DNA from: a virus
Lineage: Duplodnaviria; Heunggongvirae; Uroviricota; Caudoviricetes
DNA length: 64,000 nt
IMG/VR virus record: IMGVR_UViG_3300044970_001522
Span: 22,278-86,277 of that record
Strand: one strand, 5' to 3'
Shown: positions 18,399 through 40,667 of the stretch, piece after piece
How the letters are laid out: each line of letters opens with the position of its first letter
How positions within the stretch are numbered: position 1 is the stretch's first letter
Position numbers and translations under genes: made by a program
The notes under the pieces: generated by a model
What the model was told of the DNA's origin: nothing
Database searches by the model: none
Seen by the model: the letters and a program-made list of their open reading frames with translations, nothing else

Positions 18399-18860
18399 AT
18401 GACTCTTACGGCACAAGCGGTCCGGCATGCCCAGGCAATCGCGTTAGACACCAACCCTGGCCTTCCCGCCTTACCTTTCATTCCTGCTACTTGGCTCCCG
18501 TCCGACGGCCTTTCTCCTGATCAGCAGGAGGCTAACCTGCTACATGTGGCCTTGTGGGTGGTCGAACGCGATTTGCACAACTTTGATATGGATCAGTGGC
18601 ACGCCGCCTGGGTTCACTTGTTTGGTGTAGCTCGCAGGGGCTCCCTGCACATGCTCAACGCATGTGGAACTATCCACTGCATCGCCGGTTTCAGCCAGTT
18701 GATGGCGGGTCAGATGGGGTTTGAGCTCACCCCCTGTCTCGCTGGGACTCGATTGCTTGGTGCAGAAGCCGCATGCCACTTTCGGGACAGCAACGAAGAT
18801 GGCCTTGCATTCCTTAAAGAGGTGATTGCTCGTAACTCCGCCACGTCATTTTCACTATGA
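18399..18860 (+). CDS. paralog family A member 1 (CGTxHC-motif protein)
   Basis: conserved LPxLPHIP...QQEANLLHVALWVVERD...CGTIHCIAGFSQLM...FLKEVIARN shared with 18857, 19664 and 40116. Confidence 0.5.
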   Translation: MTLTAQAVRHAQAIALDTNPGLPALPFIPATWLPSDGLSPDQQEANLLHVALWVVERDLHNFDMDQWHAAWVHLFGVARRGSLHMLNACGTIHCIAGFSQLMAGQMGFELTPCLAGTRLLGAEAACHFRDSNEDGLAFLKEVIARNSATSFSL

Positions 18861-19306
18861 ACACGATTCTCACCAGGCTTGCCGTTGATTCTATTCGTCA
18901 CGCCCTGGCCTTGAACACCGGCCCCGGCATTCCACGGCTACCACACATTCCAAACAACCTGCTGACGGACATTCTGTTCCCGAAACAGCGGGAGGAAAAT
19001 CTTTTATTCCTTTCCCTGTGGGTGATTGAGAGAGACTCACATAATCTTGAAATGAGTACTTGGCATGCGGATGCCAAGACAGGCTACACAGGAGTCGTAA
19101 CCCTTCAAAACTGTGGCGAGGTCCATTGCATTTCGGGATTCGCACAAGTTATGTGTGGTGAAAAGGGCTTCTTCATGTACCCTGGATTTGTTGGTCGCTT
19201 GCTACTTGGGGACGAAGCAGGCACGCACTTCACTGACAGCAACGCCGACGCACTTTGCTTCCTTCGCCGAGTTATTTCACGTAATTCCCCTGGTGCTAGT
19301 GCTTGA
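18857..19306 (+). CDS. paralog family A member 2
   Basis: ATGA-coupled; CGEVHCISGFAQVMCG...FLRRVISRN. Confidence 0.5.
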   Translation: MNTILTRLAVDSIRHALALNTGPGIPRLPHIPNNLLTDILFPKQREENLLFLSLWVIERDSHNLEMSTWHADAKTGYTGVVTLQNCGEVHCISGFAQVMCGEKGFFMYPGFVGRLLLGDEAGTHFTDSNADALCFLRRVISRNSPGASA

Positions 19307-19313
19307 AACAAGA

Positions 19314-19616
19314 ATGGAAACCGAAAACCTAAACCTGCGGTCTTTGTGCCGCAAGCAACAAATTGCACTTGCAGTGTTGCGGTCAATGTGCAATTCACAG
19401 ACGGGCCACCTAGTACTTGAGAATTGGGAGCCAACACTCGACGATCTCGACCGCCGTGTGGATGCAGCACTGGCTGAGGTCCCTGCCCCAGGAGACAACT
19501 TTCCTGAGAAAACCGGCTTCTTTCGCAAGGCGAAGAATGCAGTTTTCGACTTTCTGTGCGGCTTCAATCTCCATGACAATGGTGATTACGACCGGGCGAC
19601 AATCCCGCCACGTTAG
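19314..19616 (+). CDS. hypothetical protein
   Basis: ATG 8 nt after the upstream stop. Confidence 0.3.
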   Translation: METENLNLRSLCRKQQIALAVLRSMCNSQTGHLVLENWEPTLDDLDRRVDAALAEVPAPGDNFPEKTGFFRKAKNAVFDFLCGFNLHDNGDYDRATIPPR

Positions 19617-19663
19617 ACTGCGGCGTGTCTCCTGCCCACCACAAACCACAAACCTCAAACAAA

Positions 19664-20074
19664 ATGACTACCTCCACCGAAACACGTCCGAGCACTCAGG
19701 CAAGTTCACTAACCATCCCTAGTCTCCCGCACATTCCAGAAAGTTGGGACATTGTGCTTTCCCCTGAACAACAAGGAGAGAACTTACGGCACGTTGCACT
19801 CTGGATTGTGGAGCGTGACTTGGATAACTTCAATATGTTTGCGTACCACCTGAATGGGGACTACACCAATTACTGGGAGGGAATAAACACCAGTAACTGC
19901 GGTACGGTTCACTGCATCGGAGGTTTCTCACAAGTTATGTGTGGAGAACTGGGCTTCACTGTCCACCCTCGGATTGCAGGAAACAGGCTGTTAGGAGAAG
20001 AGGCCGAAAGCCACTTCTCGGACACCACTGAAGACGGTCTTGCTTTCCTTCGGGAAGTGATCGCTCGCGGTTAG
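19664..20074 (+). CDS. paralog family A member 3
   Basis: caaaATG; CGTVHCIGGFSQVMCG...FLREVIARG. Confidence 0.5.
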   Translation: MTTSTETRPSTQASSLTIPSLPHIPESWDIVLSPEQQGENLRHVALWIVERDLDNFNMFAYHLNGDYTNYWEGINTSNCGTVHCIGGFSQVMCGELGFTVHPRIAGNRLLGEEAESHFSDTTEDGLAFLREVIARG

Positions 20075-20075
20075 T

Positions 20076-20294
20076 ATGCAACGAAACTACCCCTTCAGTC
20101 GAAAACACCGTCACCCGAAGGGGTCTCGGTGGGTCGAGGTGAAAGATGGGCTGAGGCTAACCCCAAATGAGAAGCTCATTCGTAAGCTGGACAAAGAGCG
20201 GGGTTCCCCCGAAGAGGTTACGCCAATTGAAGTACAAATCTCATTGGGGTTTGTCCTCGTCGTGCTACTTTCGGTGCTTTATATATTTGGTTGA
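20076..20294 (+). CDS. small protein with C-terminal transmembrane segment
   Basis: ISLGFVLVVLLSVLYIFG C-terminus. Confidence 0.3.
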   Translation: MQRNYPFSRKHRHPKGSRWVEVKDGLRLTPNEKLIRKLDKERGSPEEVTPIEVQISLGFVLVVLLSVLYIFG

Positions 20295-20448
20295 TTTCCC
20301 CCGTTTGTCACATTAAATTCGACACAGTTTACCTCCCCATCGAAGACGCAATTTCTGCCGCCGCAGACTGGTGAGAGCTACCAGCCTGAACTCGACGGGC
20401 ACCCCCTTATCAAGGTTTTGTCGGTCGTTTCTCCGTAGCGTAGGGGCA

Positions 20449-20492
20449 GGGCGGTTTACCCCCTTGCCTTTCCGACAGGGAAGCGGTAAACT
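20449..20492 (+). promoter_or_regulatory. cassette promoter TTGCCT-N17-TAAACT
   Basis: GGGCGGTTTACCCCC; spacer TTTCCgacaGGGAAG. Confidence 0.6.
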
Positions 20493-20513
20493 AAGCTAGT
20501 TCAAAGCACTCAG

Positions 20514-20831
20514 ATGAATCTCGCTCAGCTCGAAAAGAGCATCCCCAACAGTTACTCTCTAACAATTTCAAAGTCCCTAAAGAGGGACCAGGGCGACTGG
20601 TGGGACCGCTGGACCTGGGCCTTAAACAGCAGCGACAAACGCTACGAGTCCACCTGGTTTGGCTTCTCAACTTTGCAAGAAGTTCTCGAGGATCTTTCCA
20701 CTCACCTTGAGCTTTACTCCGAGCTTTTTCAGAGCGACACGGCACACAAGGAAGAAACGGAAGAGGTGCTCACAGATGGCGAGCTCGATGAGCTTGTTAG
20801 GTGTTTGTCCTATCAGGACCCCAAACCCTGA
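20514..20831 (+). CDS. hypothetical protein
   Basis: after promoter 20449-20492. Confidence 0.3.
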   Translation: MNLAQLEKSIPNSYSLTISKSLKRDQGDWWDRWTWALNSSDKRYESTWFGFSTLQEVLEDLSTHLELYSELFQSDTAHKEETEEVLTDGELDELVRCLSYQDPKP

Positions 20832-20878
20832 ATATCTAACTAGCTTACCTGACACTGCACACCTGAAACCTGAGAAAA

Positions 20879-21769
20879 ATGTCAATCACTCTGAAAGCCA
20901 CTCATCTTGTAAACGAGGGAAGCTACCTTGTTCATAGGAGCCATCACAGTGGCCTTGAGGTAGATGGAATCCCTGTAACGGCAAACACTTTCGTTGTGTC
21001 GGACCCTACGACCATCCTTAGTGTTCGCGTGTTTCAACCCGCAGTTACGCATTATGAGAACGAGACTGGTAGCACTTTGTCAGTCGAGTCGTACATGGAA
21101 CAGAAAAGCGATCTCGCTTCAAAAGGCACCCCGGAAAAGGGGTACTCAAGCTGCTACATCTTTGAGAATCTAGACGACGAATTTGCCTACAAGCGTTTTC
21201 TCAAAACGTGGAAGCCGGTGTTCGGCGAGTCTCGCACGGAAAAGGATCCCGTCAAACTTGAGGTGGTGGAGGTTCGTACCAACTCCGGCGACCCAGACAT
21301 TCAGTCTATGTGGAACTCTCCGCAATGCGCAACCAAGGCACACCTATACACCTTAGACCGCAATGCGATTTCTCTCCGAGACTTCAAAGCTTGTTGCGAA
21401 GCTCATGGCTTAGACTACAATATCCCGTCCCACAGCGGTATTCGATTTGCAAAGATCGACGGGAAGTACGCCGGGTTTGACGACATGGACTTTTCCAAGT
21501 CTCCCCCTTTCATTGGTACTCTCGACCAGTGCAAAGCAGAAAAGTTGTCTCTTTACAAGAGGGTGACGAATACTATCAAACTATACATTGCGAAGTACAG
21601 GACGAAACCCGCACTGAAAAACGCTGCAGAGGTTCTATCCGATCTAGACGCCATTTGGGTCAGGGTACAGAAAGTCACACCCATGAAAGCCTCTCGCGAC
21701 AATCACACTGCCGCACTCGCCGCAATCAATAAGCTGCAGACCTCAGTTCGTAGGGAGATACTGGACTAA
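20879..21769 (+). CDS. hypothetical protein
   Basis: 296-aa ORF, aaaATG context. Confidence 0.4.
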   Translation: MSITLKATHLVNEGSYLVHRSHHSGLEVDGIPVTANTFVVSDPTTILSVRVFQPAVTHYENETGSTLSVESYMEQKSDLASKGTPEKGYSSCYIFENLDDEFAYKRFLKTWKPVFGESRTEKDPVKLEVVEVRTNSGDPDIQSMWNSPQCATKAHLYTLDRNAISLRDFKACCEAHGLDYNIPSHSGIRFAKIDGKYAGFDDMDFSKSPPFIGTLDQCKAEKLSLYKRVTNTIKLYIAKYRTKPALKNAAEVLSDLDAIWVRVQKVTPMKASRDNHTAALAAINKLQTSVRREILD

Positions 21770-21812
21770 GGCGGTTTCCCCCCTTGCCTTCCCGGCAGGA
21801 AAGCGGTATAGT
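21769..21812 (+). promoter_or_regulatory. cassette promoter TTGCCT-N17-TATAGT (tandem duplicate of 22081)
   Basis: spacer CTTCCCggcaGGAAAG; +1 TTACTTCAGTCCAC. Confidence 0.6.
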
Positions 21813-21835
21813 TACTTCAGTCCACGCACGCGACC

Positions 21836-22054
21836 ATGACCTTCGACCCTCAAGCAGAAGCACGCTCAATGCTGCTTTGTTGGGAAAAGTACTACGTTAT
21901 TCCACCTAACACTAAAACACTTCGAGATTGCGCTGAGCATGGCGCTACACACTGCGCCTACGGCTGGCCAAAGTTTCCGGACCCCAGATGGAACAGTGAG
22001 CAGATCGAAGCGTATCTTGCTGCCTCCTGCTCTGCCCCGCATAGTCCGTGCTGA
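21836..22054 (+). CDS. hypothetical protein (paralog of 22148 at the N-terminus)
   Basis: N-terminus MTFDPQAEA versus MAFHPQAEA; identical 5'UTR. Confidence 0.3.
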   Translation: MTFDPQAEARSMLLCWEKYYVIPPNTKTLRDCAEHGATHCAYGWPKFPDPRWNSEQIEAYLAASCSAPHSPC

Positions 22055-22080
22055 GGCACACCCACCGATCCCTTTCTTTG

Positions 22081-22124
22081 GGGCGGTTTACCCCCTTTCT
22101 TTCTCGAAGAGAAAGCGGTATACT
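22081..22124 (+). promoter_or_regulatory. cassette promoter TTTCTT-N17-TATACT
   Basis: GGGCGGTTTACCCCC; spacer TTTCTCgaaGAGAAAG. Confidence 0.6.
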
Positions 22125-22147
22125 TACTTCAGTCCACGCACGCAACC

Positions 22148-22423
22148 ATGGCATTCCACCCTCAAGCAGAAGCCGATCTCGAAGCACTTTGGCTGGGGCT
22201 TCCCGAAGAAACCCGAAGCAAGGTTGAGAAAATGCCCGCAGGTTTGCGGGACTCTTTTCTGCAGTTGGCCCACTCCTACGCACTTTCTGCTTACAAACTC
22301 GGGGCTCGGCGATCCAGGCAAGACTGCCACAGGGCTCTTTTACTTGTGGCTGAGAAGGTGCATCCCGACAGCAACTTGGAAAGCTTCCTTGAGCCTGGCT
22401 TCGGTATGATTGCTCGTGCGTAG
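22148..22423 (+). CDS. hypothetical protein (paralog of 21836)
   Basis: duplicated promoter, 5'UTR and N-terminal codons. Confidence 0.3.
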   Translation: MAFHPQAEADLEALWLGLPEETRSKVEKMPAGLRDSFLQLAHSYALSAYKLGARRSRQDCHRALLLVAEKVHPDSNLESFLEPGFGMIARA

Positions 22424-22966
22424 CACTCACACTCAACTTCAACGAGTCACCGACCCACGCCCTTAAACTGAAGGAAAGCCATGGCCAACCCCAAGCCACC
22501 GATCACAGATCTGCAAAGAAACATGTTACGGCTGCTTGAACGCAGCACGAACTCAGGGGACGGATGGCGCTCAGTGTCTAGCCTCCTTTGGAAGCTGGTG
22601 GTGGAGCAAAGCCACCCAGAACTAACTGAGTTGGATCAAGAAAACACGCGGGTCCGGTTTACACCGGAAGGACTCATTGTGATGAAGTATTTGCCATGAC
22701 TCTTGAGTCACCAATTCTTAATCTTGCAGAGTTTCTCGGCAAAGAAGTCACCGTTGTGCTACGCGATGGCTCAGTTCGTACCGGTGTTATCTCGCCTTCT
22801 TCAGGTAGTTTTATGCCCTGGCGTTGGATGGGCGAGTTATTTCCGTACTTCATGAACACAGGCTCATCTCCGGCTCTCACTTGGACCGGCACAGGTCGGT
22901 GGGATATTATTGATGAACACGAGTACGACATTATGAAAATTGATCTAAAAAGCTGAATGAGAAACA

Positions 22967-23524
22967 ATGACTGAGGCTAAAGGGGCAATGAAAGTGTACA
23001 CAGGAATTGGGAGTCGAGAGACACCTGGTCCGATCCTGGCACTTATGGGCCGAATTTCGGCAAGGATGGACCGTCTAGGACTCACACTGCGCTCTGGTGG
23101 TGCTGACGGGGCTGACTCAGCTTTTGAGGAATACTCTACGAGAAAGGAGATATTTCTCCCGTACAACGGCTTTAATGGAAGGCACCACGATGGCGTATCC
23201 TACTTTGATTACCTTTTGTGCCCAGGGCGAGAACTAGCTCAAGAAAGCGTGGAGCAGTTTCATCCCGCACCCTCTCGGCTCTTTGATAAGGGGCGAAAGT
23301 TAATGGCTAGGAACGCGATGCAAGTCCTAGGGAGAGACTGCAAGAGCCCAACGGACGTGGTAGTCTGCTGGACAAAAAACGGCAAGGACGTCGGTGGAAC
23401 CTCACAGGCGATTCGCATCGCCAGGTTTCACAACATTTCCGTCCTTAACCTGGGTAACCCGGCCACAGAGACCTATTTCACTGCTTTCACAGACGATCCC
23501 GATTCGCCTTTTGTACTTCCTTAG
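22967..23524 (+). CDS. DprA/SLOG-like Rossmann-fold protein
   Basis: YTGIGSRETP...GLTLRSGGADGADSAFEE (GGAxGxD motif of the DprA/LOG-like SLOG superfamily). Confidence 0.4.
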   Translation: MTEAKGAMKVYTGIGSRETPGPILALMGRISARMDRLGLTLRSGGADGADSAFEEYSTRKEIFLPYNGFNGRHHDGVSYFDYLLCPGRELAQESVEQFHPAPSRLFDKGRKLMARNAMQVLGRDCKSPTDVVVCWTKNGKDVGGTSQAIRIARFHNISVLNLGNPATETYFTAFTDDPDSPFVLP

Positions 23525-23586
23525 GGCGGTCCCCGGTTACCCTGGGGCGGTCCCCCCTTGCCTTTCCGACAGGAAAGCGGTATAGT
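23524..23586 (+). promoter_or_regulatory. double cassette TTGCCT-N17-TATAGT
   Basis: GGGCGGTCCCCGGTTACCC then GGGGCGGTCCCCCC; spacer TTTCCgacaGGAAAG. Confidence 0.6.
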
Positions 23587-23631
23587 AGGTTTATACGGGA
23601 CAAAAACCCGCAATCCACCTTGTCCCAGAAA

Positions 23632-24054
23632 ATGGCATTCACATCCGAAGGAACAATCGAGATCGACCTTCCCGAGTTATGGGAATGGGTTCACGACAAC
23701 TATCTCCCTGTCCCCAGGGGGTCTGAGGTACGTTATGGGGTGCCCCGCATCAACCGTGGGAACTCCGTCATGGAAATTGACTTTGCGGCTGCTACCGAGT
23801 GCGATCCGGCGGATTGGGCGGTGAAGCCGAAGGCGGTGACCCAGTGGGAATCTACTGGCGCTGCACAAACTGAAAGTCCTACCGAAGGGGGAGCTCAACA
23901 TACCATTGAGCTGCGTGTATCGCAAAACTTTTATGACGTGGTGACCCTTCTTGCAAAGGCTGACGGTATAAGTAAAGCCGACGTCATAAGAAGGGCTGTG
24001 GAGCTATTCGCCAGAGAGGCAGCCGAAGGCGGTGACCCAGTGGGAGGAGCTTAA
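23632..24054 (+). CDS. ribbon-helix-helix DNA-binding protein (C-terminal RHH)
   Basis: C-terminus FYDVVTLLAKADGISKADVIRRAVELFA resembles a CopG/Arc RHH. Confidence 0.35.
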   Translation: MAFTSEGTIEIDLPELWEWVHDNYLPVPRGSEVRYGVPRINRGNSVMEIDFAAATECDPADWAVKPKAVTQWESTGAAQTESPTEGGAQHTIELRVSQNFYDVVTLLAKADGISKADVIRRAVELFAREAAEGGDPVGGA

Positions 24055-24303
24055 GTGAAATTCAAAATTACTAGAAACCCTGTGAAGGAACCCAACCTAA
24101 ACTGTCGGGTAATGAGGATTTTAGTACCCTATGCTCTTTTAATCGACGCTGCAATTGAAATCTTCACGTTCTCGCAGTTCAGAGGTAACCTTCAAATGAC
24201 TTTGATCGTTAAGTTAGCTAAGGAGAGAGAAAAGCTAGCTAAGCAATCGCGTAAGCTTCACAACATTTGACTTCATGACTCCTTTCACTCTTCTCTTTTA
24301 GCC

Positions 24304-24420
24304 CTCAAACTCACCGGGTATATATCCTGGCCCTGGCTTCTGGTGCTCCTTCCCTCGTTCATCGACTCTTCGCTTGTATCTCTCTATGTAGGGTTTTGGT
24401 ACTACACCTTTGGAAAAACA
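24304..24420 (+). pseudogene. third, start-less copy of the WPWL-motif membrane protein
   Basis: LKLTGYISWPWLLVLLPSF encoded with no in-frame ATG/GTG after the upstream stop; a short out-of-frame ATG ORF lies just upstream. Confidence 0.3.
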
Positions 24421-24501
24421 CCTGGGTCTCTGGTTTCCGGACCAACGGAAGGTTCCGCCGCAAATAATTTATCACTTTCTCAACAACCAACCTAAACCAA
24501 A

Positions 24502-25554
24502 ATGGCAAACATCGAACGCAAACTCGCCTCCGTCCAGCGAATCGCTGAGGTTCGCTCTATCCCTGAAGCAGACAGAATCTGTGCCTACCGTGTTAATGGG
24601 TGGTGGGTTGTTGACTCTGTAGGTAAGTATGAGGTTGGGGACTTGGCAGTTTACCTGGAGCCAGACTCGTTTGTGCCCCATGTACTGGATCCTACTCTGT
24701 CTAAGGGGAAAGAACCGAAGGAGTATAAGGGGGTAAGGGGGGAGAAATTAAGAACAATTCGGCTGAAAAAGCAACTTTCTCAGGGGTTGTTGCTACCGTT
24801 CGTGGAGACATTGAACGGAGGATTCTTCCAAGTCAAAGGTGATGACGGCTTCTTACGCTTTGTAAGGGAAGGTGACGATGTTACCGAACTCCTCGGTATT
24901 CAAAAGTGGGAAGCTCCGGTCCCCGCATGCCTTGCCGGACAAGTTCGTGGAAACTTCCCGAGCTACATTACCAAAACGGATCAGCCGAGAGTTCAATCTC
25001 TATACGACAAACTGGGGGAATACAAGAATGTTGTATACGAAGTTACGGAGAAACTAGAGGGTACATCTTGTACGATGTACCTTAACAACGGAGAGTTCGG
25101 AGTTTGCTCCCGTAACTTAGACCTAAAAGAGGATAATAATAACACTTATTGGTCCGTCGCTAGAAAAGTCAATCTAGAAGAAAAACTGAAGACTGCAGGG
25201 TTTGACAATGTGGCTGTACAGGGAGAAGTTGTAGGCCCAAAAATCCAGCAAAACATCTACAAGCTAAATGACTTCAAGTTCTTTGTTTTTGATGTCTACC
25301 TTACGGATATGGGGAGGTACATGACCCCCCTGGAAAGGAAAAACTTTTGCGATCAATTTGGTTTGGGCCACGTCCCTGTGTTGGGAAGCTTCTCTATAAA
25401 GGATATGGGTGTGGAAGAGATCCTCGGTATGGCAGACGGTTTCTCTCAACTTAACAATAAGACTCTCCGGGAGGGGATTGTCTTCAAGAGTGAATGTGGT
25501 GCTTTTAGCTTCAAGAGCATCAGCAATCAGTACCTTCTTAAAAGCGGGCTTTGA
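24502..25554 (+). CDS. RNA-ligase-family nucleotidyltransferase (Rnl2-like) with duplicated C-terminus downstream
   Basis: motif I TEKLEGTS (KxxG lysine nucleotidyltransferase); the 3' end is antisense-overlapped by a homing endonuclease gene and duplicated at 26464-26691. Confidence 0.5.
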   Translation: MANIERKLASVQRIAEVRSIPEADRICAYRVNGWWVVDSVGKYEVGDLAVYLEPDSFVPHVLDPTLSKGKEPKEYKGVRGEKLRTIRLKKQLSQGLLLPFVETLNGGFFQVKGDDGFLRFVREGDDVTELLGIQKWEAPVPACLAGQVRGNFPSYITKTDQPRVQSLYDKLGEYKNVVYEVTEKLEGTSCTMYLNNGEFGVCSRNLDLKEDNNNTYWSVARKVNLEEKLKTAGFDNVAVQGEVVGPKIQQNIYKLNDFKFFVFDVYLTDMGRYMTPLERKNFCDQFGLGHVPVLGSFSIKDMGVEEILGMADGFSQLNNKTLREGIVFKSECGAFSFKSISNQYLLKSGL

Positions 25555-26397
25555 CGGTCCCGTTTTGGCCTTGTTTGGGGTTAAATCAACCCTGAGAAGA
25601 AGGTTCCCCACTCCGCATTCATTCACATCCAACTGACTACCAATTTGACTGGGAGTGTAGCCCTTGAGATGTAAAACCAAGATACTTATGCAGTAGTCGC
25701 TGTAACTAGAGAACCTGTTCCCGTACTTATTATACACTTTAGTTCTCTGCTGGTCGTTCAAAGAAGTCAGATTTAGGCGCTCTAGGGCTTTAGCAACGCC
25801 TCTGACGTTTACTCCCAGGGCTTTTGAAATGACCTCCGCGATACCCCAACAAGACTCGTATAGGTTTTCTATCTCAACTAAGAAATGTTTATAGGAGTGA
25901 AATCTGTTTCTAATTGCTGGACTTTTTAATAGCTGCTTCCAGGAATTTTCTTCGGCTCTTCCCTTTGCAGCCATAGACAGTTTCTTCTTAGTTTCTTCTG
26001 AGGCTTTAAAACCTTTTCTAGTCTTGCTAATCTTCTCCGCAGTTAAATGTGTCACGGGGCAATTCTCCTTGGTTCTACCCACATTCCATGGCGCCCCCTT
26101 GGCCCCGAAAGCGTTCTTTCGGCTTCTGTTTAAGTATAGTTCGTTGAACTCTATGTTTAGTCTTCGTAAAACAGTTTGTTCCCATTCGGCTGCCTTTTTA
26201 GGTTCGTCTCCAAAAGTTTTTCTCACTTCCAGGATATCTGGCTCCCCGTGAACTTTTCTAAATGCTTTTACATGCCGGGAGCTGGTGAAATAGGCAACCC
26301 AAAGGTCAGCAGGGTGACATCCTTTGGCGAATCTAACTCCGTAGTAGTACTTATTGAACCGGGACCAACCCACTCTGTATGTGTAGCAATTTCTCAT
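25264..26397 (-). CDS. GIY-YIG homing endonuclease (seg-like) with NUMOD3 motifs
   Basis: N-terminus CYTYRVGWSRFNKYYYGVRFA (GIY-YIG); HLTAEKISKTRKGFKASEETKKKLSMAAKGR (NUMOD3 repeats); the only minus-strand gene in the window. Confidence 0.7.
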   Translation of the reverse strand: MRNCYTYRVGWSRFNKYYYGVRFAKGCHPADLWVAYFTSSRHVKAFRKVHGEPDILEVRKTFGDEPKKAAEWEQTVLRRLNIEFNELYLNRSRKNAFGAKGAPWNVGRTKENCPVTHLTAEKISKTRKGFKASEETKKKLSMAAKGRAEENSWKQLLKSPAIRNRFHSYKHFLVEIENLYESCWGIAEVISKALGVNVRGVAKALERLNLTSLNDQQRTKVYNKYGNRFSSYSDYCISILVLHLKGYTPSQIGSQLDVNECGVGNLLLRVDLTPNKAKTGPSKPAFKKVLIADALEAKSTTFTLEDNPLPESLIVKLRETVCHTEDLFHTHILYREASQHRDVAQTKLIAKVFPFQGGHVPPHIRKVDIKNKELEVI

Positions 26398-32943: not shown

Positions 32944-33198
32944 ACTTCGACAACTTTGGCCAGATTTGGAACGAGTCCCGTGGCCGATTCACAAAGCCCG
33001 GACGCGACGCCATTCACGAAACGAAAATTGAGGAATGGGTAGATAGGGGCATTGACCTTGCCTTTGACCCTTCCTTCTGGGAAGGTATGGCTCGTGGAGC
33101 TATTGAACGTCTTCAAGAAGAGATCGCAGGTACGGACAACCTGCGCTGATTGCACCGCCGTCCGACCCAAACTCCTGATCAACCAACCTCGCAAAACC

Positions 33199-33702
33199 AT
33201 GGGACTTGACTCCTACCTTTACGCTGAGAAATACCTTGGCAACTACGACCATTCGTCCGACGAAGAAAAAGAAACGTATAACAAGATTGTAACAGCTTTG
33301 GGTATGACCGACTTTGCAGCCGTTAGGCGCAACAGTCTTTACACGCGAGTCGAAGTTGCTTACTGGCGTAAAGCCAACCACATTCACAAGTTTTTTGTGG
33401 ATCTATCTGAGGGAGAAGACAACTGCGAAGACATTGATGTTGGCCGAGACGACTTGGTAGAACTTCTCTCTCGGTGCAAAAAACTCCTCGAAAGTAGGGA
33501 CACCCCTGCGGAAACAAACACAGTAAACCCTGCGGAGATCCTACCCACCGAAGGGGGATTCTTCTTCGGCTCGACAGACTACGGTGAGAATTACTACGCC
33601 GACCTTGAACACACAGTCAAAGTCCTGGAGAAAGTCCTCAACCACCCTGCGATTCCTGAAGGGGACTACAGTTGGAGATTCGTGTACCGGGCCTCCTGGT
33701 AG
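33199..33702 (+). CDS. hypothetical protein
   Basis: aaccATGg. Confidence 0.3.
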   Translation: MGLDSYLYAEKYLGNYDHSSDEEKETYNKIVTALGMTDFAAVRRNSLYTRVEVAYWRKANHIHKFFVDLSEGEDNCEDIDVGRDDLVELLSRCKKLLESRDTPAETNTVNPAEILPTEGGFFFGSTDYGENYYADLEHTVKVLEKVLNHPAIPEGDYSWRFVYRASW

Positions 33703-33861
33703 TTCCCAGGATTTACTGCGTTAGGTTTTAACTATGCTTGGGTGTCGATGGCTCAGCAACCTTTGAGGATTTCCTCCACCATTTGACCATCGAGTCCTTA
33801 CCCATAGCGCAAAGTTGATACAGCTTTAATTTGTATCCAAACAAACAATCAACTTGAGAAA

Positions 33862-35346
33862 ATGACAACGCCATCCTTTTTAAACGCACTCGAAAACGAG
33901 TTTAACCAAACCATCACCGCTAACGGTGCAAAGGCATACAAGTCCACCGAGTCTAAGTGCCTGGACCTCTTTGGAAAGATTGCAGCTTGCCGTGACAACA
34001 TCAGCGAAGCAACTCGCCTATTCAATCTTGCTTATGCCGAAAACCCTGAGACCGCAACTCGAATCTTGTTTTGGGCACGCGACATTCGTGGGGGCCAGGG
34101 AGAGCGAAAGATCTTTCGAGAAGTTTTTAAGGAACTCGTCCGCAATGATGCTGCAATTGGTGCCAGGCTAGTTAGCCTGATTCCACAGTACGGTCGCTGG
34201 GATGATGTGGTAGCCCTCGACGGTACCTTAGTTTGGGGCATCGCACTCGAAGCAATTAAGGCACAACTGAACGCCGACCTAAATACGGAAGTTGGAAAGT
34301 CAGTGTCACTTCTGGCAAAGTGGCTGCCTTCCATTAACGCTTCCAGCCAGGACTCTAAGAGGATTGGCCGAAAAATTGCCGAAGCAATGGGTTGGACCGA
34401 GAGACAGTACCGCAAGGCACTGACTGCCCTCAGGACCCAAGTCAAAATTGTTGAGCAGCCAATGTGTGCCCGTGAGTGGGAAAGCATTGACTATAGCAAG
34501 TTGCCTTCTCGGGCCGGATTCATGTATCGTAAAGCCTTTGCAAAGCGCGACGGCAACCGTTACCAATCCTACCTTGACTCAGTAGAAAAAGGTGAGGCAA
34601 AAATCAATGCCGGTACGATCTACCCGTATGAGATTGTTCACAAGTACCTTTACGGGGGCGATAGGAGTGACCAAACCCTGAACCTAATGTGGGAGGCTCT
34701 ACCCAACTACATGGAGGGAGAGCAGCTAAACGGCCTGGTAATTGCCGACGTCTCAGGATCAATGGGAAATAACGGCGGCATGCCCATGGCGGTTTCAATC
34801 TCGCTGGCGATGTACATCGCTGAGCGTAACACCGGGGCATGGAAGGATAAGTTCCTAACCTTCTCCGGAAGTCCGCAGTTGCAGTCGGTTACAGGGAGAA
34901 ACGTTGCTGAGCGTGTTCGTAACCTTAGTCAGGCCGACTGGGGTGTGAATACAGACCTGCAAGCAGTCTTCAATCTTGTGTTGGCTACCGCAACGAGGAA
35001 CCATATTCCTGAGGGGGAAATGCCGCGCAAGCTCATCATTGTCTCAGACATGCAGTTTGATTCCTGCTGCAGAAACAACTCAGTGACAAACTTTGAGGCG
35101 GTGCGAATCAAGTATGCTCAAGCAGGGTATTCCTTGCCGGAACTTGTCTTCTGGAATGTTAGCTCTAGCGGCAACGTACCTGTGAAAATGCATGATACGG
35201 GGACTTGCCTGGTCTCCGGATGCAGCCCTTCAATCCTGAAAGCTGTGCTTACTGGCGGGGTAATTACGCCTGTAGGGGTTATGCGTGACGCTGTTTACAC
35301 TGAAAGGTACGACGCTGTCGGTGCCGTATTTGCTGAAGGAGCATGA
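33862..35346 (+). CDS. vWA-domain protein with N-terminal helical domain (possible Ro60/TROVE-like or DUF2828-like)
   Basis: MIDAS motif VIADVSGSMGNNGG (DxSxS) at about 60% of the length, preceded by ~290 aa of predicted helical sequence, which is Ro60-like domain order. Confidence 0.45.
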   Translation: MTTPSFLNALENEFNQTITANGAKAYKSTESKCLDLFGKIAACRDNISEATRLFNLAYAENPETATRILFWARDIRGGQGERKIFREVFKELVRNDAAIGARLVSLIPQYGRWDDVVALDGTLVWGIALEAIKAQLNADLNTEVGKSVSLLAKWLPSINASSQDSKRIGRKIAEAMGWTERQYRKALTALRTQVKIVEQPMCAREWESIDYSKLPSRAGFMYRKAFAKRDGNRYQSYLDSVEKGEAKINAGTIYPYEIVHKYLYGGDRSDQTLNLMWEALPNYMEGEQLNGLVIADVSGSMGNNGGMPMAVSISLAMYIAERNTGAWKDKFLTFSGSPQLQSVTGRNVAERVRNLSQADWGVNTDLQAVFNLVLATATRNHIPEGEMPRKLIIVSDMQFDSCCRNNSVTNFEAVRIKYAQAGYSLPELVFWNVSSSGNVPVKMHDTGTCLVSGCSPSILKAVLTGGVITPVGVMRDAVYTERYDAVGAVFAEGA

Positions 35347-35528
35347 TCTGGATCAAATTGCCGGGTGCCCTCTGCATCGTTCTGCAAACCGTTTTCATAA
35401 CTTTGAAGGTAGAGGGTCAGGTTTCCTGGCCCTGGCTCACAGTGCTTTCACCAACCCTTGTGCCAATCTTTCTACTTGGGTTGGGAGCCCTTTGGATGAT
35501 TCTTCAACTACTTTCGCATGAGAAATAA
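35343..35528 (+). CDS. small membrane protein, WPWL-motif paralog 1
   Basis: LKVEGQVSWPWLTVLSPTLVPIFLLGL. Confidence 0.4.
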   Translation: MIWIKLPGALCIVLQTVFITLKVEGQVSWPWLTVLSPTLVPIFLLGLGALWMILQLLSHEK

Positions 35529-35531
35529 CTA

Positions 35532-35720
35532 ATGTTTGAGAATCTCGCAGTTTCGTTAATGACAGCCCAGGGTCTCCTCCTCGGGTTGAAATTAACGGGG
35601 CAAATAACCTGGCCATGGCTCTCAGTGTTTAGCCCAATCGTAATCTTAGGCTCTGTGTCCATTTTGTCACTCATTCTGCTTCTGCTACTGTCGAATTTGT
35701 ATGCAAGGTCAACCAAGTGA
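35532..35720 (+). CDS. small membrane protein, WPWL-motif paralog 2
   Basis: LKLTGQITWPWLSVFSPIVILG. Confidence 0.4.
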   Translation: MFENLAVSLMTAQGLLLGLKLTGQITWPWLSVFSPIVILGSVSILSLILLLLLSNLYARSTK

Positions 35721-35963
35721 ATCGCATAGCGAGTGGGCTCCCTTTTCCTCTTCTTTGCGGGAGGAGTACGACAGTCTTGTAGAAAACTTACGAAGTCGTG
35801 GCCTAGACAATGTTATTTCTTGGGAGAACTTTCTAAGAGACTTCACACCCTTAGTTGGACACGAAATACCAACCGAGTACCGCCATTACGACGTAAGAGT
35901 GTCGGAAGATGGTGAAGTTATCGAGTTGTACAAGGGGACTCGACGAGTAACAAATTTGAGCCA

Positions 35964-36029
35964 GGGCGGTTAACCGCCCCTAGCGGTTCGGTTTTCACCC
36001 TTTCCTTCGCTCAGTAAAACCGCTATAGT
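35964..36029 (+). promoter_or_regulatory. cassette promoter TTTCCT-N17-TATAGT, ATG at +7
   Basis: GGGCGGTTAACCGCCC perfect palindrome upstream. Confidence 0.5.
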
Positions 36030-36073
36030 TCACGTATGGAAAACACCCCCCAGAACACAGCATCTTCTCGGGG

Positions 36074-36478
36074 ATGCCTCCTTTCTCCGTTAGCCCTAAA
36101 GCAATGTGGAAGTTTAACAAACCCCTGAGTCAATTGCGCTCTTTTCGTGACAGTTTACTGAGGGACGACCAACACACCTACGCCGCAAGGCTTGGAGAAA
36201 TTGTGGAGTCCCTCGAAGAGTGGTATGGAGGTGCCATGGAGTCGAACGAAGAAGCAGGGGGAGCAGGTGGCTTTGATGAGCTAAGCAGAGTGTACAGAGA
36301 GGCAAACTCAATCTACGAGTCTAAGCTCTCCGATGAAGCCAAGTATGACCTTATTTTCTCCAAGAAGATATCGCAAAAAGTCCCCTTCTCGTGGTACGAC
36401 CCTGACACATCTTACGAGGAGGACGTAAGGTGCTTTATGAACGCCTTTCGAGAGTATATGGGTGGTGCCCCGCGATAG
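36074..36478 (+). CDS. hypothetical protein (start uncertain: 36074 or 36104)
   Basis: a 30-codon leaderless ORF at 36036 in another frame precedes it. Confidence 0.3.
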   Translation: MPPFSVSPKAMWKFNKPLSQLRSFRDSLLRDDQHTYAARLGEIVESLEEWYGGAMESNEEAGGAGGFDELSRVYREANSIYESKLSDEAKYDLIFSKKISQKVPFSWYDPDTSYEEDVRCFMNAFREYMGGAPR

Positions 36479-37199
36479 GCCCCGAGTGAGGGTCTCTGCT
36501 TGAGTCCGTTTACCCTTAGCACTCTCAACCTATGATACGGATGTGGAGCTCAAGGTTCCACTCCTTGCCCCCCTTAACCTACACCCAGCAAAGCGGTGCG
36601 AAAAACCGAAGAGTAGCCAAGTGGTTAGGCAGCGGTAATGCAAAAAGATTACCTAGCTTAGGTAATTCAGCAACTACCCAATACGCAAAAGGAACCGCCA
36701 TACGCAAGTTCGAATCTTGCCTCTTCGACTTTGCCTTCGGCAAACATAGATAGTTCAGCGATTTACCCCAACTCTCTTGGGAAAAACAACTATCTAGCTA
36801 AACCCAAACTTTATCTCCATAATGATAGTAAAAGACCTTTATTCTCGATCCAAGTAATTTGCCAAGCAAACTTAGATAGAACAAAAAGATATGACACCCA
36901 CTGAAGCAGGTTTTGACGGTGACAAGGGGATACGGTTAGACGTGCCGAGTAAAGGGATAGGGCATGACTTATTGTATCGACTGAAGCGAGGTAAGACCCT
37001 ACCCAAAAACTCCCAAAACAAATCGTTAAAGAACATGCTGATCTGGCTTTACCCCGACGACAGCGACTCTAAGCTCTTGTTTTGTAACTCTGACGGGGAG
37101 TGGTTTAATTTAACCTTTGAACCCACTAACATTGGAGAGTAGCTCAAGGGCTAAGAAAAAACTTTCAATATCGCTCCAGGTAGTTTTCGGATCAAATAC

Positions 37200-37311
37200 G
37201 GGACCGTAGCTCAACTGGTAGAGCACGAAAAGTTATCTTGACAAAGATACATCAGCAATTAAATTACCTCTTTTAAAGGCGCGGTTGCAGGTTCGAGTCC
37301 TGCCGGTCCCA
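37200..37311 (+). ncRNA. tRNA-like RNA with ~40-nt irregular hairpin replacing the anticodon arm
   Basis: perfect 7-bp acceptor stem (GGGACCG/CGGTCCC), canonical D arm (TAGCTCAACTGGTAGAGCA), T arm (GCAGG-TTCGAGT-CCTGC) and discriminator A; 61 nt lie between the D and T arms instead of the usual ~22. Confidence 0.5.
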
Positions 37312-37325
37312 TTCCCATTTTTGTT

Positions 37326-37868
37326 ATGACTAACAGCAAGACCTTCTTTCTCCTAACTCAAAACCACCTGAAACTGCTGAGAAGAATGCACGTTGGGTGG
37401 AGCAACTGTGAATTCGGTGCTCCGGAAATAGACCCGAAAAGACCGTATGGCAACAGTTGGGTTATCGGGGACATACACGAAATTCTGACTGGAGAAGACC
37501 TAGAAGAATTGACCGAGTCACAGGAAGAGGAGTACAGGCAACTTCACGAACAAACTCAAACAGCCCTCCAAATCATTCTCTCTACAGGGAAGTTTGAGGA
37601 AGGTTTGTACATGCTTACTGAACCGTATTCTTCTACATGGGTGCGGAAAGCCATGATCAATTCCATGGCCTACAAAGACTACACAGCCAGTATGGTCTTC
37701 GATACTGAAGACAAGATTATTGTTGGTCGTGTCATAGACATCGACGACATTATCTCGTTTCACGGCGAAACGATACCCGAGTTTGAGTCCAACTTTCATG
37801 CAGCCATCGAAGACTATTTAGCCGCATCCCAGGTACTTGGTTCTTCGCCGGAAAAGCCCGCAAGTTAA
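37326..37868 (+). CDS. hypothetical acidic protein
   Basis: 180-aa ORF between the tRNA-like gene and a tRNA 3'-half-like remnant. Confidence 0.35.
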   Translation: MTNSKTFFLLTQNHLKLLRRMHVGWSNCEFGAPEIDPKRPYGNSWVIGDIHEILTGEDLEELTESQEEEYRQLHEQTQTALQIILSTGKFEEGLYMLTEPYSSTWVRKAMINSMAYKDYTASMVFDTEDKIIVGRVIDIDDIISFHGETIPEFESNFHAAIEDYLAASQVLGSSPEKPAS

Positions 37869-37870
37869 GG

Positions 37871-37920
37871 TACTTCGGGTGTCTAAGGCTCGGTTTCAGG
37901 TTCGAGTCCCACCGCTTCCA
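37871..37920 (+). ncRNA. tRNA 3'-half-like remnant (T-loop GGTTCGAGTCC + acceptor-like end)
   Basis: GGCTCGGTTTCAGGTTCGAGTCCCACCGCTTCCA resembles the 3' half of the 37200 element, but no matching 5' half forms a full cloverleaf. Confidence 0.25.
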
Positions 37921-38157
37921 CTTTCACACGAACAATGAACAGAGTTTCAATTGCGATCTTGGCGCTTTGCACCGCTTTATCTGGCAACGAGGCATTGTGC
38001 AAGACCCAAGTAGTGATTACAGGTAGGAACGCAGAAGAAGTACAAAGAAATGCGTTCAAAACCAAAATGAGCTACCCGCTCAGGCCGCTAAAGTGTAGTC
38101 AACGGTGCTCTCAATTGTGGGAAAGAGACTGAGGGTCGGGTCTTAGCTCCAGAGGAA

Positions 38158-38201
38158 GGGCGGTTTACCCCCTTGCCTGTCTGAAAGAAAGGCGGTATGA
38201 T
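38158..38201 (+). promoter_or_regulatory. cassette promoter TTGCCT-N17-TATGAT
   Basis: GGGCGGTTTACCCCC. Confidence 0.55.
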
Positions 38202-38224
38202 TATAGCGTAGCCGAGCAAGTCCA

Positions 38225-38503
38225 ATGGAGCAGCCCACAAATCTCTCCCCCAAAGCACAAGCAATTCGTGCTCAAGCCATCAATGTGTATCGGAGCAGAG
38301 CTACAACCGAAATTGACCTGATTGTAGCAGCCGCTCTTCGCGCTGCTGCTGACTCGATTGTTCCCGAGGACTACGCGTCTTTCACCGGGCACGTTGAGTG
38401 GGACAACGGTCTAGAAGCAAGGAACGACTCCGTCCGTGAGTCCCTCCTTGATATTGCCTCTGAGCTGGAGATTAGATTCACTAACTCGATCCAAGAGCGG
38501 TAA
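38225..38503 (+). CDS. hypothetical protein
   Basis: after promoter 38158-38201. Confidence 0.3.
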   Translation: MEQPTNLSPKAQAIRAQAINVYRSRATTEIDLIVAAALRAAADSIVPEDYASFTGHVEWDNGLEARNDSVRESLLDIASELEIRFTNSIQER

Positions 38504-38515
38504 ACCGTTTTCCTA

Positions 38516-38559
38516 GGGCGGTTTACCCCCTTTCCTTTCCGACAGGAAAGCGGTATAGT
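38516..38559 (+). promoter_or_regulatory. cassette promoter TTTCCT-N17-TATAGT; +1 TTATTTCAGTCCA
   Basis: spacer TTTCCgacaGGAAAG identical to 23564. Confidence 0.6.
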
Positions 38560-38589
38560 TATTTCAGTCCAAGCAACCCCTCACAAACC

Positions 38590-39417
38590 ATGCCCGCTTT
38601 CGCCATCACCAACGACCTTAACTGGACCGTCTCCCCAAGGCCCACGGCATCGCTTAACTCCCATGGAGTCTGGGTTGCGGATCCAGACCGCAAAGCGATA
38701 CACCGAGACGACACCGACGAACGCCTCGGATATGTTTCCACCGAGTACGAGGTGGTGCAAAATGCCCAGCTGCTCGGGATGATTAACCCTATGGTTGAAG
38801 AGGGGCTTCTGGTAGTGGAAAACATGGGATACTTGGCTCACGGAGCCAAGGTGTTCGCCCAGGCGAAAATTAACCAGGAGTTTCGTGTAATTGGCGAGGA
38901 TTACAACGCATACATCACACTTCTGAATGGGCACACAGGGAACGCATCCGTAGCCATCGGCCCGGTTGCCACTCGCGTAATTTGTGGAAACACCTTTTCG
39001 ATGGCTTACTCTAACATCGGAGAAAAATTCCGCCACTCTTCCGGAGTGAACGAGCGCATTCTTGAGAGCACCGCAGTGCTTGACTTTGTGAATAGCGCCA
39101 TGAAGATGTATTCTAAAAGAGTTGAAGTCATCGCCTCGGCAACTTGCACTTCCGCCCAATTCCGTGCCTTCCTTGAGGCGACTTACAAGAAAGAAGCGGA
39201 CAAAATGCGCAATGTCAACGTTCTCAACGACCTGTTTTACAACGGCGCTGGTAACGAAGGTCGCACCTTTTACGATGCCATGAATGCGGTTACGGACTTT
39301 AGTTCCAATCGTAGTCGAAAGAGCGAGACCGGACGCTTTGGCTACGCAAACTTCGGCCAAGGCGCAACCATCAACCAGCGGGCCATGGAAGTAGCCCTTG
39401 ATATGGCTACTGTCTAA
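38590..39417 (+). CDS. DUF932-like protein (phage/plasmid-related, TIGR03299-like)
   Basis: LLNGHTGNASVAIGPVATRVICGNT resembles the conserved ...S.DGS...P.RVVCxNT core of DUF932. Confidence 0.45.
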   Translation: MPAFAITNDLNWTVSPRPTASLNSHGVWVADPDRKAIHRDDTDERLGYVSTEYEVVQNAQLLGMINPMVEEGLLVVENMGYLAHGAKVFAQAKINQEFRVIGEDYNAYITLLNGHTGNASVAIGPVATRVICGNTFSMAYSNIGEKFRHSSGVNERILESTAVLDFVNSAMKMYSKRVEVIASATCTSAQFRAFLEATYKKEADKMRNVNVLNDLFYNGAGNEGRTFYDAMNAVTDFSSNRSRKSETGRFGYANFGQGATINQRAMEVALDMATV

Positions 39418-39442
39418 CTAGCGAGTGTCGGGCCCAGGGGGT

Positions 39443-39488
39443 GGGGCGGTTTTCCGCCTTAACTCCCTTGCCTCGCACACGCTAGAGT
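39443..39488 (+). promoter_or_regulatory. degenerate cassette (GGGGCGGTTTTCCGCC ... TAGAGT)
   Basis: the TTGCCT hexamer is only 9 nt from TAGAGT; alternative -35 TTAACT at 18 nt. Confidence 0.3.
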
Positions 39489-39526
39489 TAATCAGCTAAC
39501 CCTCAATCCCCCGACCATCAACCCCA

Positions 39527-39757
39527 ATGAAGTACCGCATTCGAGAAGAAATCCGTACCGAAAACGGTGAAAGGATTAGCCGGTTCTACTGCGAACACAA
39601 GTTCTTATGGTGGTGGTTACTTACCTTCTTTTATGAAGGCGTAGACGGTTGCCCAGGCCCGGACGTTTTCTTTAATACAAAGCAAGAAGCGCTAACGGCG
39701 CTGCGCGATCATTTTCAGTCCTTAGAGTTAACAGAAGTGGTATTTCACGAAGTATGA
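39527..39757 (+). CDS. hypothetical protein
   Basis: ORF. Confidence 0.3.
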   Translation: MKYRIREEIRTENGERISRFYCEHKFLWWWLLTFFYEGVDGCPGPDVFFNTKQEALTALRDHFQSLELTEVVFHEV

Positions 39758-40044
39758 AAACTGAGAACCCGTATGTTGGCGGTATCCTTGGCTTAGTGAC
39801 TATTGTCACTGCGCTAGGGCTAGCAGTTCTAGTGGTGGCGGTAATTAACTTGAGCTACCGAAGAGCGGAAGAGCACAACGCTGAGATTGAGAGGGAAGAA
39901 GCGAAGGTTTTAGCCGAAAAGTGCAAGCTGGTGAGTAACTCAGTTCGTGCAGACCCGTACATAACCGAGAGGACCCTAAGTCTCCACATTTGCAACGACC
40001 AAGGGGTCTCAACTTACTTTGTAACGCGTAAGCCTTTCCCCTAG
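39754..40044 (+). CDS. membrane protein (N-terminal TM)
   Basis: GILGLVTIVTALGLAVLVVAVI. Confidence 0.3.
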   Translation: MKTENPYVGGILGLVTIVTALGLAVLVVAVINLSYRRAEEHNAEIEREEAKVLAEKCKLVSNSVRADPYITERTLSLHICNDQGVSTYFVTRKPFP

Positions 40045-40115
40045 GTTTGCTGGGCGAGGAAAACCCCGCACCGTTCACCTTTTCCAAACAAACTACTGTA
40101 TTTTCGAACGAAACA

Positions 40116-40667
40116 ATGACCACAGCAACTTGCACCGAAGCACTGACGCCAGCTGAAGCCACTCGGGTTGCTCACCGGATGTGCACATCACAAGGGCTCC
40201 CTCCGCTCCCGCATATCCCGGCGAATTTCCTACTCGCCCTTGACGCCTTTGAGGAGTGCACGTACAGAAACGTAGAAGACTTGGGAGGGTTGACACCCGA
40301 ACAACAGGAAGCCAATCTCCTCCATGTCGCACTATGGATTGTTGAGCGCGACCGGAAAAACCTCCACATGGAGAGGTGGCACAAGCTCTGGTTTGACACT
40401 GACAGAACAACTTACGAAGATTGGTCCTTCTGGAAGGAACCATCGAACGAAGCAGGTTTTCACACGTGCGGGACCACTCACTGTCTGGCGGGCTTCGCGC
40501 AGGTTATGGGAGGGGTTGGTGCTTTTACTCTCACACCTAAAGAAGCGGGAGAGGTGCTTCTCGGATCGAATGCAGCAGGCCACTTCTTCGACACTGACGA
40601 ACAAGCACTTGTTTTCCTGGAACAAGTTATTGAACGTAATTCCCATTCAGTACACCCCACTGAGTAG
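40116..40667 (+). CDS. paralog family A member 4
   Basis: LPPLPHIP...QQEANLLHVALWIVERD...CGTTHCLAGFAQVMGG...FLEQVIERN. Confidence 0.5.
   Translation: MTTATCTEALTPAEATRVAHRMCTSQGLPPLPHIPANFLLALDAFEECTYRNVEDLGGLTPEQQEANLLHVALWIVERDRKNLHMERWHKLWFDTDRTTYEDWSFWKEPSNEAGFHTCGTTHCLAGFAQVMGGVGAFTLTPKEAGEVLLGSNAAGHFFDTDEQALVFLEQVIERNSHSVHPTE

Follow-up and report, generated by a model that had tools for sequence, protein, structure and literature searches.

Why does a tailed phage carry the same small protein four times, and does the short Cys- and His-containing motif that the copies have in common mark a functional site? These questions are raised by a 64,000-nt stretch of a Caudoviricetes genome (positions 22,278 to 86,277 of the IMG/VR virus record IMGVR_UViG_3300044970_001522; hereafter, the window), in which four open reading frames (ORFs), referred to here as copies 1 to 4, encode related proteins. 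An initial annotation made from the sequence alone had described these ORFs as a paralog family and had proposed that the family has a metal or catalytic site and belongs to a host-takeover or anti-defense arsenal. We confirm the observation and find the interpretation to be partly supported, with the host-takeover or anti-defense role a hypothesis. The copies share what we call the WH-CxTxHC domain, which is a genuine, widespread and unnamed family without a recognizable fold among solved structures and which is restricted to phages and mobile elements. Its C-x3-H-C element is supported by conservation as the functional heart of the family and fits a metal or catalytic site.

Four paralogs at two sites of one phage

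The four ORFs are present on the plus strand as originally described, with lengths of 136 to 183 aa when counted from the ATGs named in the initial annotation, and both alignment and a hidden Markov model (HMM) support their paralogy. Together with the ORF that separates copies 2 and 3, they are as follows.

18399-18860, plus strand: copy 1, 153 aa, with LPFIP at 18471-18485, MDQWH at 18588-18602, a 20-aa insert and CGTIHCIAG at 18663-18689
18857-19306, plus strand: copy 2, 149 aa, with MSTWH at 19052-19066, CGEVHCISG at 19112-19138 and LLFLSLW replacing LLHVALW
19314-19616, plus strand: intervening ORF, 100 aa, not a family member, kept in the relative L050
19664-20074, plus strand: copy 3, 136 aa, the shortest, with MFAYH at 19835-19849, a 16-aa insert and CGTVHCIGG at 19898-19924
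40116-40667, plus strand: copy 4, 183 aa, with a longer N-terminus, MERWH at 40368-40382, a 28-aa insert and CGTTHCLAG at 40467-40493

Across the copies, 45 columns are invariant and identity to copy 1 is 51-55% (MAFFT alignment A1); codon-based pairwise identity among the four is 42-51%. When an HMM built from the four copies is searched against all six-frame ORFs of the window, they are recovered at E-values of 4e-68 to 3e-78, and no fifth copy is found, with the next ORF at E = 0.14. The similarity is far beyond chance, and the window holds exactly four copies.

Several features thought to be common to all copies are less uniform. Copy 2, the paralog with the greatest divergence, reads CGEVHC, with Glu in place of Thr, where CGTxHC had been called invariant, and LFLSLW where the same had been said of HVALW, while the LPHIP segment ascribed to all four is LPFIP in copy 1. 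The tandem arrangement described for copies 1 to 3 holds for the first two, as the stop of copy 1 and the start of copy 2 share 4 nt (ATGA), but a 357-nt gap containing the unrelated 100-aa ORF, which has no Pfam match, precedes copy 3. The variable middles reported for the proteins are real and can be placed more precisely, as an insert of 15-28 residues lying exactly between M-x2-(W/Y)-H and C-x3-H-C and thus splitting the WH from the CxTxHC.

The family is also found on IMG/VR contigs of 277 and 279 kb, which carry it at a pair of sites separated by 20 and 36 kb. On one of these contigs copy 4 is 99% identical to that of the window, and relatives of copy 4 in IMG/VR, on contigs of up to 277 kb, are 89-99% identical. 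From these contigs, we conclude that the window belongs to a jumbo phage with a genome of about 277 kb.

A shared domain defines the family

The core of the domain, about 95 aa, was defined in an alignment (A4) over which conservation was counted in about 355 sequences. It is characterized by the motif [LF]xMxxWH-x(0-30)-CxTxHC[ILM]AG[WFH]A, with rare longer loops, preceded by a helix and followed by the superfamily pattern ...AGxxLLGxEA..xF.D....L..L. In A4 numbering, M25 is conserved in 97% of sequences, W28 in 93%, H29 in 97%, C32 in 99%, T34 in 97%, H36 in 99%, C37 and G40 each in 99.7% and F75 in 99%, with L86 also conserved, and 299 sequences have the complete MWHCTHC pattern. The paralogs of the window score 71-88 bits against the A4 HMM (E = 1e-21 to 1e-26, model positions 2-93), which by sequence places all four within the superfamily that A4 defines; the deviations from its consensus are at Thr34 in copy 2 (Glu) and at Trp28 in copy 3 (Tyr).

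This depth of conservation strengthens the proposal that Cys-x3-His-Cys is a metal or catalytic type of site, as its three residues are conserved at 99-99.7% and are accompanied by the upstream M-x2-W-H. The same cannot be said of the acidic ERD positions that had been included in the site. The ERD triplet is kept only within the jumbo-phage clade, with the wider family variable at these positions (consensus LADP), and we therefore rejected it as a set of catalytic acids. Two further features are exclusive to this clade, namely the LPxLPHIP arm and the QQEANLLHVALW helix. Compared with the wider family, the clade has an extra, nearly invariant 20-residue helix (QQEANLLHVALWIVERD).

The number of residues between the WH and the first Cys varies between 0 and about 30, or is even higher, which identifies this segment as a loop located at the hairpin tip. 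In the commonest forms the spacing is only 1-2 residues, so that the variable middle of the window proteins is best described as an expanded loop inside the motif, and it is in this loop region that the four paralogs differ from each other. Some jumbo-like members read HC-x3-H (CGTVHCIAGHA), and a Streptomyces/actinobacterial-type branch that matches the phage protein family phrog_889 has Gly or Ala at H29 (QW[GA]...CxTxHC).

The two His residues are coupled. H36 is absent in four sequences, and in all four H29 is replaced as well (as the pairs E/R, K/Y, K/F and F/A), with both Cys kept. Such natural covariation points to two His side chains that lie next to each other and act together, and their joint replacement by pairs of side chains capable of contact is as expected if a metal bridge gives way to direct packing.

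Predicted structure of the domain

AlphaFold models of copies 3 and 4 have pLDDT values of 85.7 and 83.3, with the core above 93. They consist of helices and isolated beta-bridges (F56/H83 in copy 3; L83, H89 and H122 in copy 4), and the second Cys of the motif lies directly before a helix. The core is predicted to be a compact, acidic and almost wholly helical domain (net charge of about -6 per 100 aa) with a short two-stranded ladder at its center. Residues alternate in M-x-x-x-H and C-x-T-x-H, and, combined with the predicted beta-bridges, this spacing suggests that the ladder, formed by [LF]xMxxWH and CxTxHC, would have a single face that carries the Met, His, Cys, Thr and His.

That the family could not be assigned to a known fold, as initially noted, holds up under profile and structure searches. 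An hmmsearch of the A2 and A4 profiles against 177,635 PDB sequences gives no match at E ≤ 10, Foldseek against BFVD gives none, and scans of the four paralogs against Pfam (E ≤ 1), NCBIfam and PADLOC assign no family.

Distribution and domain architecture

A word-indexed search returns 78 close homologues, all annotated as hypothetical and without a Pfam domain, on contigs of up to 282 kb. By exhaustive profile search of 1.84 billion representatives, we find 310 proteins at E ≤ 1e-3, each representing a cluster at 50% identity. The family extends from jumbo phages and Autographiviridae to prophages of Proteobacteria, Bacteroidota and Cyanobacteria and to mobile-element-like loci of Actinobacteria. 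Across 185,579 species genomes, a degenerate DNA pattern detects no more than 21 loci; most of the six that we inspected have prophage-like neighbors (repressor, integrase, HNH, lysozyme and tail genes), and the Streptomyces locus has an FtsK/TraB-like gene of the kind seen in integrative conjugative elements (AICE-like). Four matches are on plasmids.

Distant members have in common only the C-terminal domain of about 95 residues. N-terminal pentapeptide repeats precede it in 58 of 119 distant members, and such repeats are also present in most of the best 120 matches to the domain profile; other distant members have leucine-rich repeat (LRR)-like or other short repeats, so that several unrelated repeat types are represented. 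In Pfam scans of the 119 and of 16 further distant members, the only domains are N-terminal pentapeptide and decapeptide repeats, and no fusion to an enzymatic domain is seen among distant members. The literature on phage pentapeptide-repeat proteins yielded no description of the WH-CxTxHC domain.

The fused forms occur in phage contigs of 13-34 kb, where their neighbors include YqaJ, SSB, DnaB, primase, DUF4942 and AcrVA2-like genes, and one fused lineage (L029-L031) has two copies per genome. In Autographiviridae phages of Ralstonia, the fused form is gp04, at the early left end and before the primase gene, as in the cultured phage RsoP1IDN. One cluster of fusions that are at least 90% identical (P0243; P0341-P0348) contains proteins of 163, 168, 178, 183, 188, 193 and 233 aa, which differ by multiples of 5 aa. 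These steps imply that the number of pentapeptide repeats varies rapidly behind a fixed C-terminal domain, and unstable repeat regions have been described in the literature for phage pentapeptide-repeat genes. On a Methylacidiphilales contig from a metagenome-assembled genome (JBBAWA010000001.1; L011/L021), a 244-aa gene fused to pentapeptide repeats is followed directly by a 146-aa copy without repeats and, farther downstream, by a third ORF in which only the C-terminal third of the domain is joined to a Cys-rich segment.

Selection and copy turnover

Between orthologues, dN/dS is 0.19-0.35, indicative of purifying selection. Relative to their orthologues in L034, copy 1 is 72% identical (dN/dS of 0.35) and copy 3 is 85% identical (dN/dS of 0.27). 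Synonymous sites are saturated between the paralogs, which are old. On this evidence from coding sequence, the four ORFs are real, selected and functional paralogs.

Copy number differs between close relatives, in keeping with the phage setting and diversifying copies noted initially. The array of copies 1 to 3 lies between genes for Rnl1-like and Rnl2-like RNA ligases, and the counterparts of 18399-20074 in three close relatives (about 90% nucleotide identity) are at the following positions.

L050: 9932-11300
L034: 7049-8420
L054: 9743-11203

Three copies are present at this site in the window and in L053. There are two in L034 and L054, where all that survives of copy 2 is a C-terminal tail joined to copy 1, and L050 combines this fusion with a frameshifted, split copy 3. 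The fused gene consists of a copy 1 body and the copy 2 tail (…VISRNSP…); it is observed in L034 and L050, and the deletion shared by L054 implies it there as well. From these fused and frameshifted copies, we conclude that the array changes by recombination between paralogs. At the second site, which follows a DUF932 gene, other phages have one or two copies.

A putative metal site and competing explanations

The reading that we favor, with a likelihood that we put somewhat short of even, is that the domain is a Cys2His2-type metal knuckle at the center of an early phage protein that binds a host factor. The [LF]xMxxWH/CxTxHC ladder would continue directly into the N-terminal end of a helix (C-[ILM]-A-G-[WFH]-A) and bring the second Cys beside the Met/His/Cys/Thr/His face, with Zn2+ the likeliest metal and Cu a possible one. 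So organized, the binding surface of this small early protein would dock onto a conserved host protein and block or redirect it, and target specificity may be set by the N-terminal arm and the knuckle loop of 15-28 residues, which differ between the paralogs and flank the proposed site. In smaller phages, the constant C-terminal domain sits behind a pentapeptide-repeat solenoid of variable length, a DNA mimic, or behind another solenoid. The recurrent fusion to DNA-mimic solenoids suggests that the targets are among host DNA-handling or defense proteins. On this reading, which is inferred, the window proteins would bind metal in a site of this geometry, be expressed early in the window phage and interfere with the host.

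Consistent with the metal knuckle are the location of fused relatives in early and replication regions, the lack of enzymatic fusions, the labile copy number and the acidic character of the domain. Several observations weigh against it. As ligands of a single tetrahedral Zn, the directly neighboring residues H36 and C37 would be an unusual pair, and the Gly or Ala at H29 in the branch that matches phrog_889 means that no more than three of the four ligands proposed can be universal. PADLOC scans return no defense or anti-defense model, only a chance-level match to DrmMII (E = 0.056) in one copy, and a promoter scan at chance level leaves early timing in the window phage unsupported by promoters. 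Moreover, a thiol active site would likewise be expected to show a Cys at a helix N-terminus and a Thr such as T34, which is conserved at 97% and lies two residues ahead of H36.

A thiol enzyme is an alternative, if an unlikely one. In such an enzyme, Cys37 at the N-terminus of the helix would be a nucleophile, activated by the neighboring His residues and positioned by Thr34, and the domain would covalently modify or cleave its substrate, be it a host protein, a nucleotide signal or a different small molecule. Delivery to the substrate might fall to the solenoid repeats or to the jumbo-phage N-terminal arm, by analogy with LRR-NEL effectors, in which a targeting repeat is combined with a C-terminal helical Cys warhead; this extension we likewise hold to be doubtful. 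A thiol enzyme would explain the conservation of C37 and T34 as a T-x-x-C just before a helix, the survival of both Cys where both His are lost, the constancy of the domain beside variable binding repeats and the changes in repeat number, by multiples of 5 aa within a group of proteins that share at least 90% identity, which look like a tuning of reach. It is harder to reconcile with an adjacent His-Cys pair, which makes for poor dyad geometry, and with the lack of a third catalytic residue (Asp, Asn or Gln) across the family, as ERD is clade-specific. The persistence of the Cys pair, the most conserved pair of residues, when the His pair is lost could also reflect a redox module, in which C32 and C37 (C-x4-C) form a reversible disulfide in a small thiol-disulfide oxidoreductase or a redox-switched regulator. 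The second Cys of the motif is at a helix N-terminus, a position that a Cys also has in CxxC oxidoreductases. We regard a redox module as very improbable, as the His, Thr and Met are nearly as conserved as the Cys pair and are not accounted for by a simple disulfide, neither a thioredoxin-like nor an AhpD-like fold or sequence signal is found for the domain, and no common redox partner is evident for hosts that range from cyanobacteria-like to Ralstonia and Streptomyces.

A different kind of explanation is that the domain is a passive cap or dimerization unit for beta-solenoids, with the stand-alone copies of jumbo phages as remnants or hetero-oligomerization partners and with His and Cys that only stabilize the fold. 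The domain does occupy the C-terminal position in fusions, where the dimerizing helices of Qnr and MfpA sit (PMC10886550), and repeats are fused to it in about half of the distant members. Yet the largest and best-conserved clade is stand-alone, with 2-4 copies under purifying selection, and the window encodes no pentapeptide-repeat protein (none of its six-frame ORFs is pentapeptide-rich in a regular-expression scan). The domain is also joined to several unrelated repeat types, and the nearly invariant QQEANLLHVALWIVERD helix of the jumbo-phage clade is typical of an interaction surface. Together, these features make a passive module improbable.

Finally, a bolder possibility, which we consider to be on the unlikely side, is that the domain is a previously unrecognized metal- or thiol-dependent effector "warhead," a constant module used with a variable part that directs it to different host DNA-handling or immune proteins, such that the paralog arrays would be an evolving counter-defense arsenal with a new fold and mechanism. 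The variable part might in that case be a pentapeptide DNA-mimic solenoid or LRR-like repeats, or, in jumbo phages, the knuckle loop together with the N-terminal arm, an assignment that we hold no more strongly. If our reading of the domain is right, it would provide a handle on many phage proteins that are annotated as pentapeptide repeat proteins and poorly understood, and a new candidate class of host-takeover or counter-defense proteins; if the domain is only a structural Zn cap, its interest is modest. The domain is small, soluble-looking and confidently modeled, and the cultured Ralstonia phages, with gp04 of RsoP1IDN, provide a genetic system.

Genomic context in the window

All sizeable ORFs of the window are on the plus strand. 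In addition to a 5′-3′ exonuclease gene, the following features can be recognized.

2107-3321 and 3318-4832, plus strand: overlapping genes for a PRPP-synthetase-like and a NAMPT-like protein (PHROG 619 and 448)
11333-12442, plus strand: Rnl1-like RNA ligase
24502-25554, plus strand: Rnl2-like RNA ligase
33862-35346, plus strand: Ro60/DUF2828-like gene
36607-36728 and 37200-37311, plus strand: two tRNA-like elements (Rfam tRNA, 44.7 and 48.5 bits)
38590-39417, plus strand: DUF932 gene, upstream of copy 4
41786-41857: tRNA Arg-TCT
42112-42201: tRNA Ile-TAT
42291-42375: tRNA Ser-CGA
53873-55360, plus strand: TET/JBP-family 2-oxoglutarate (2OG)-Fe(II) oxygenase
57406-58272, plus strand: TET-associated glycosyltransferase (TAGT)

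The immediate neighbors of both copy sites have no Pfam domains, and promoter and terminator scans around copies 1-3 and around copy 4 are at chance level. A shared upstream sequence, AAACAAAATG, was rejected as a signal; it is exact only at copies 1 and 3, and its near-match count is not above chance. Copy 4 is at a syntenic position downstream of DUF932, a gene found ahead of the copy 4 site in every related jumbo-phage contig. Among these relatives, L001 and L003-L005 encode a protein of about 200 aa with a weak DnaJ-type CxxCxGxG signal between DUF932 and the family member, whereas the window has two small ORFs of 76 and 96 aa there, the latter hydrophobic.

Cultured phages give no blastn match for the 18-24 kb region and no tblastn match for copy 4. 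By the Ro60-like gene, the closest cultured relatives are the Synechococcus phages B3 and B23 (62% identity), which are without the family. The two tRNA-like elements are 1.3-1.9 kb downstream of this gene; their acceptor, D and T arms are intact, but the anticodon loop is interrupted by insertions of 57 and 52 nt, and ARAGORN makes no call. Synechococcus phage B3 has a 110-nt "pseudo-tRNA" just after its own Ro60-like gene, and we consider the elements at 36607-36728 and 37200-37311 to be candidate YrlA-like Y RNAs. For Ile-TAT, the called tRNA has a length of 90 nt, and Rfam does not report it at the gathering threshold. The RNA ligases, the Ro60-like gene and the tRNA genes would together amount to an RNA-repair toolkit, and the oxygenase and TAGT genes suggest hypermodified, glycosylated DNA bases in the window phage. 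The PRPP-synthetase-like and NAMPT-like pair resembles the phage NAD+ reconstitution pathway NARP1 (Adps and Namat), which counters NAD-depleting defense.

Comparison with known systems

Experimental anti-defense evidence exists for one phage pentapeptide-repeat protein, the small gp60 of Vibrio phage 24 (24_60), which is reported to counter the Sucellos defense cassette (bioRxiv 10.1101/2024.07.02.601686). Like the fused relatives of the window family, gp60 combines pentapeptide repeats with a C-terminal addition, and its gene, between those of a methylase and a primase, has a similar neighborhood. However, the C-terminal region of gp60 (…TFIIMGEAYFVSISNGLTVRAGCQSY…) shows no relationship to the domain and lacks a WH/CxTxHC motif, and the Vibrio phage 24 genome (L057) has no match to the domain HMM. 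The anti-defense evidence thus does not transfer by homology, and we rejected carrying the anti-Sucellos function of gp60 over to the family, given the different C-terminal domain.

When compared to the DNA-mimic, gyrase-binding proteins of the Qnr/MfpA/AlbG type (PF00805), about half of the distant homologues are likewise pentapeptide-repeat proteins, ending in the WH-CxTxHC domain. Qnr and MfpA have a C-terminal helical element for dimerization (PMC10886550). The differences run in both directions, as Qnr and MfpA are without the WH...CxTxHC domain, and the four window proteins are without pentapeptide repeats (no match to PF00805, PF13599 or PF13576 in Pfam scans at E ≤ 1).

Small all-helical domains with a compact His/Cys cluster are known from ZAS (H-x3-C-x2-C), AhpD/CMD (C-x-x-C-x3-H) and CsoR (C...H-x3-C). 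Their resemblance to the WH-CxTxHC domain serves as a lead only.

Among known families, links are found only with phrog_889, phrog_30739 and phrog_31265, all of which are annotated as "unknown function," are without a name or structure, and have the core segment W-x-...-CxTxHC-x-AG-W in common with the window family. In the motif region only, phrog_889 is matched by copy 4 at E = 2.3e-5, by copy 1 at 0.0066 and by copy 2 at 0.045, with no match for copy 3. The same PHROG is matched by the Streptomyces sequence L017 (1e-18) and the Gemmatimonadales sequence L018 (1e-26), and phrog_31265 is matched by compact domains fused to pentapeptide repeats (E = 1e-7 to 1e-10). Relative to these PHROGs, the window clade scores weakly and adds the LPxLPHIP arm, the invariant QQEANLLHVALWIVERD helix and the long insert. 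By sequence comparison, the relationship of the window family to phrog_889 appears to be one of kinship at the superfamily level, by way of intermediate sequences, rather than of membership.

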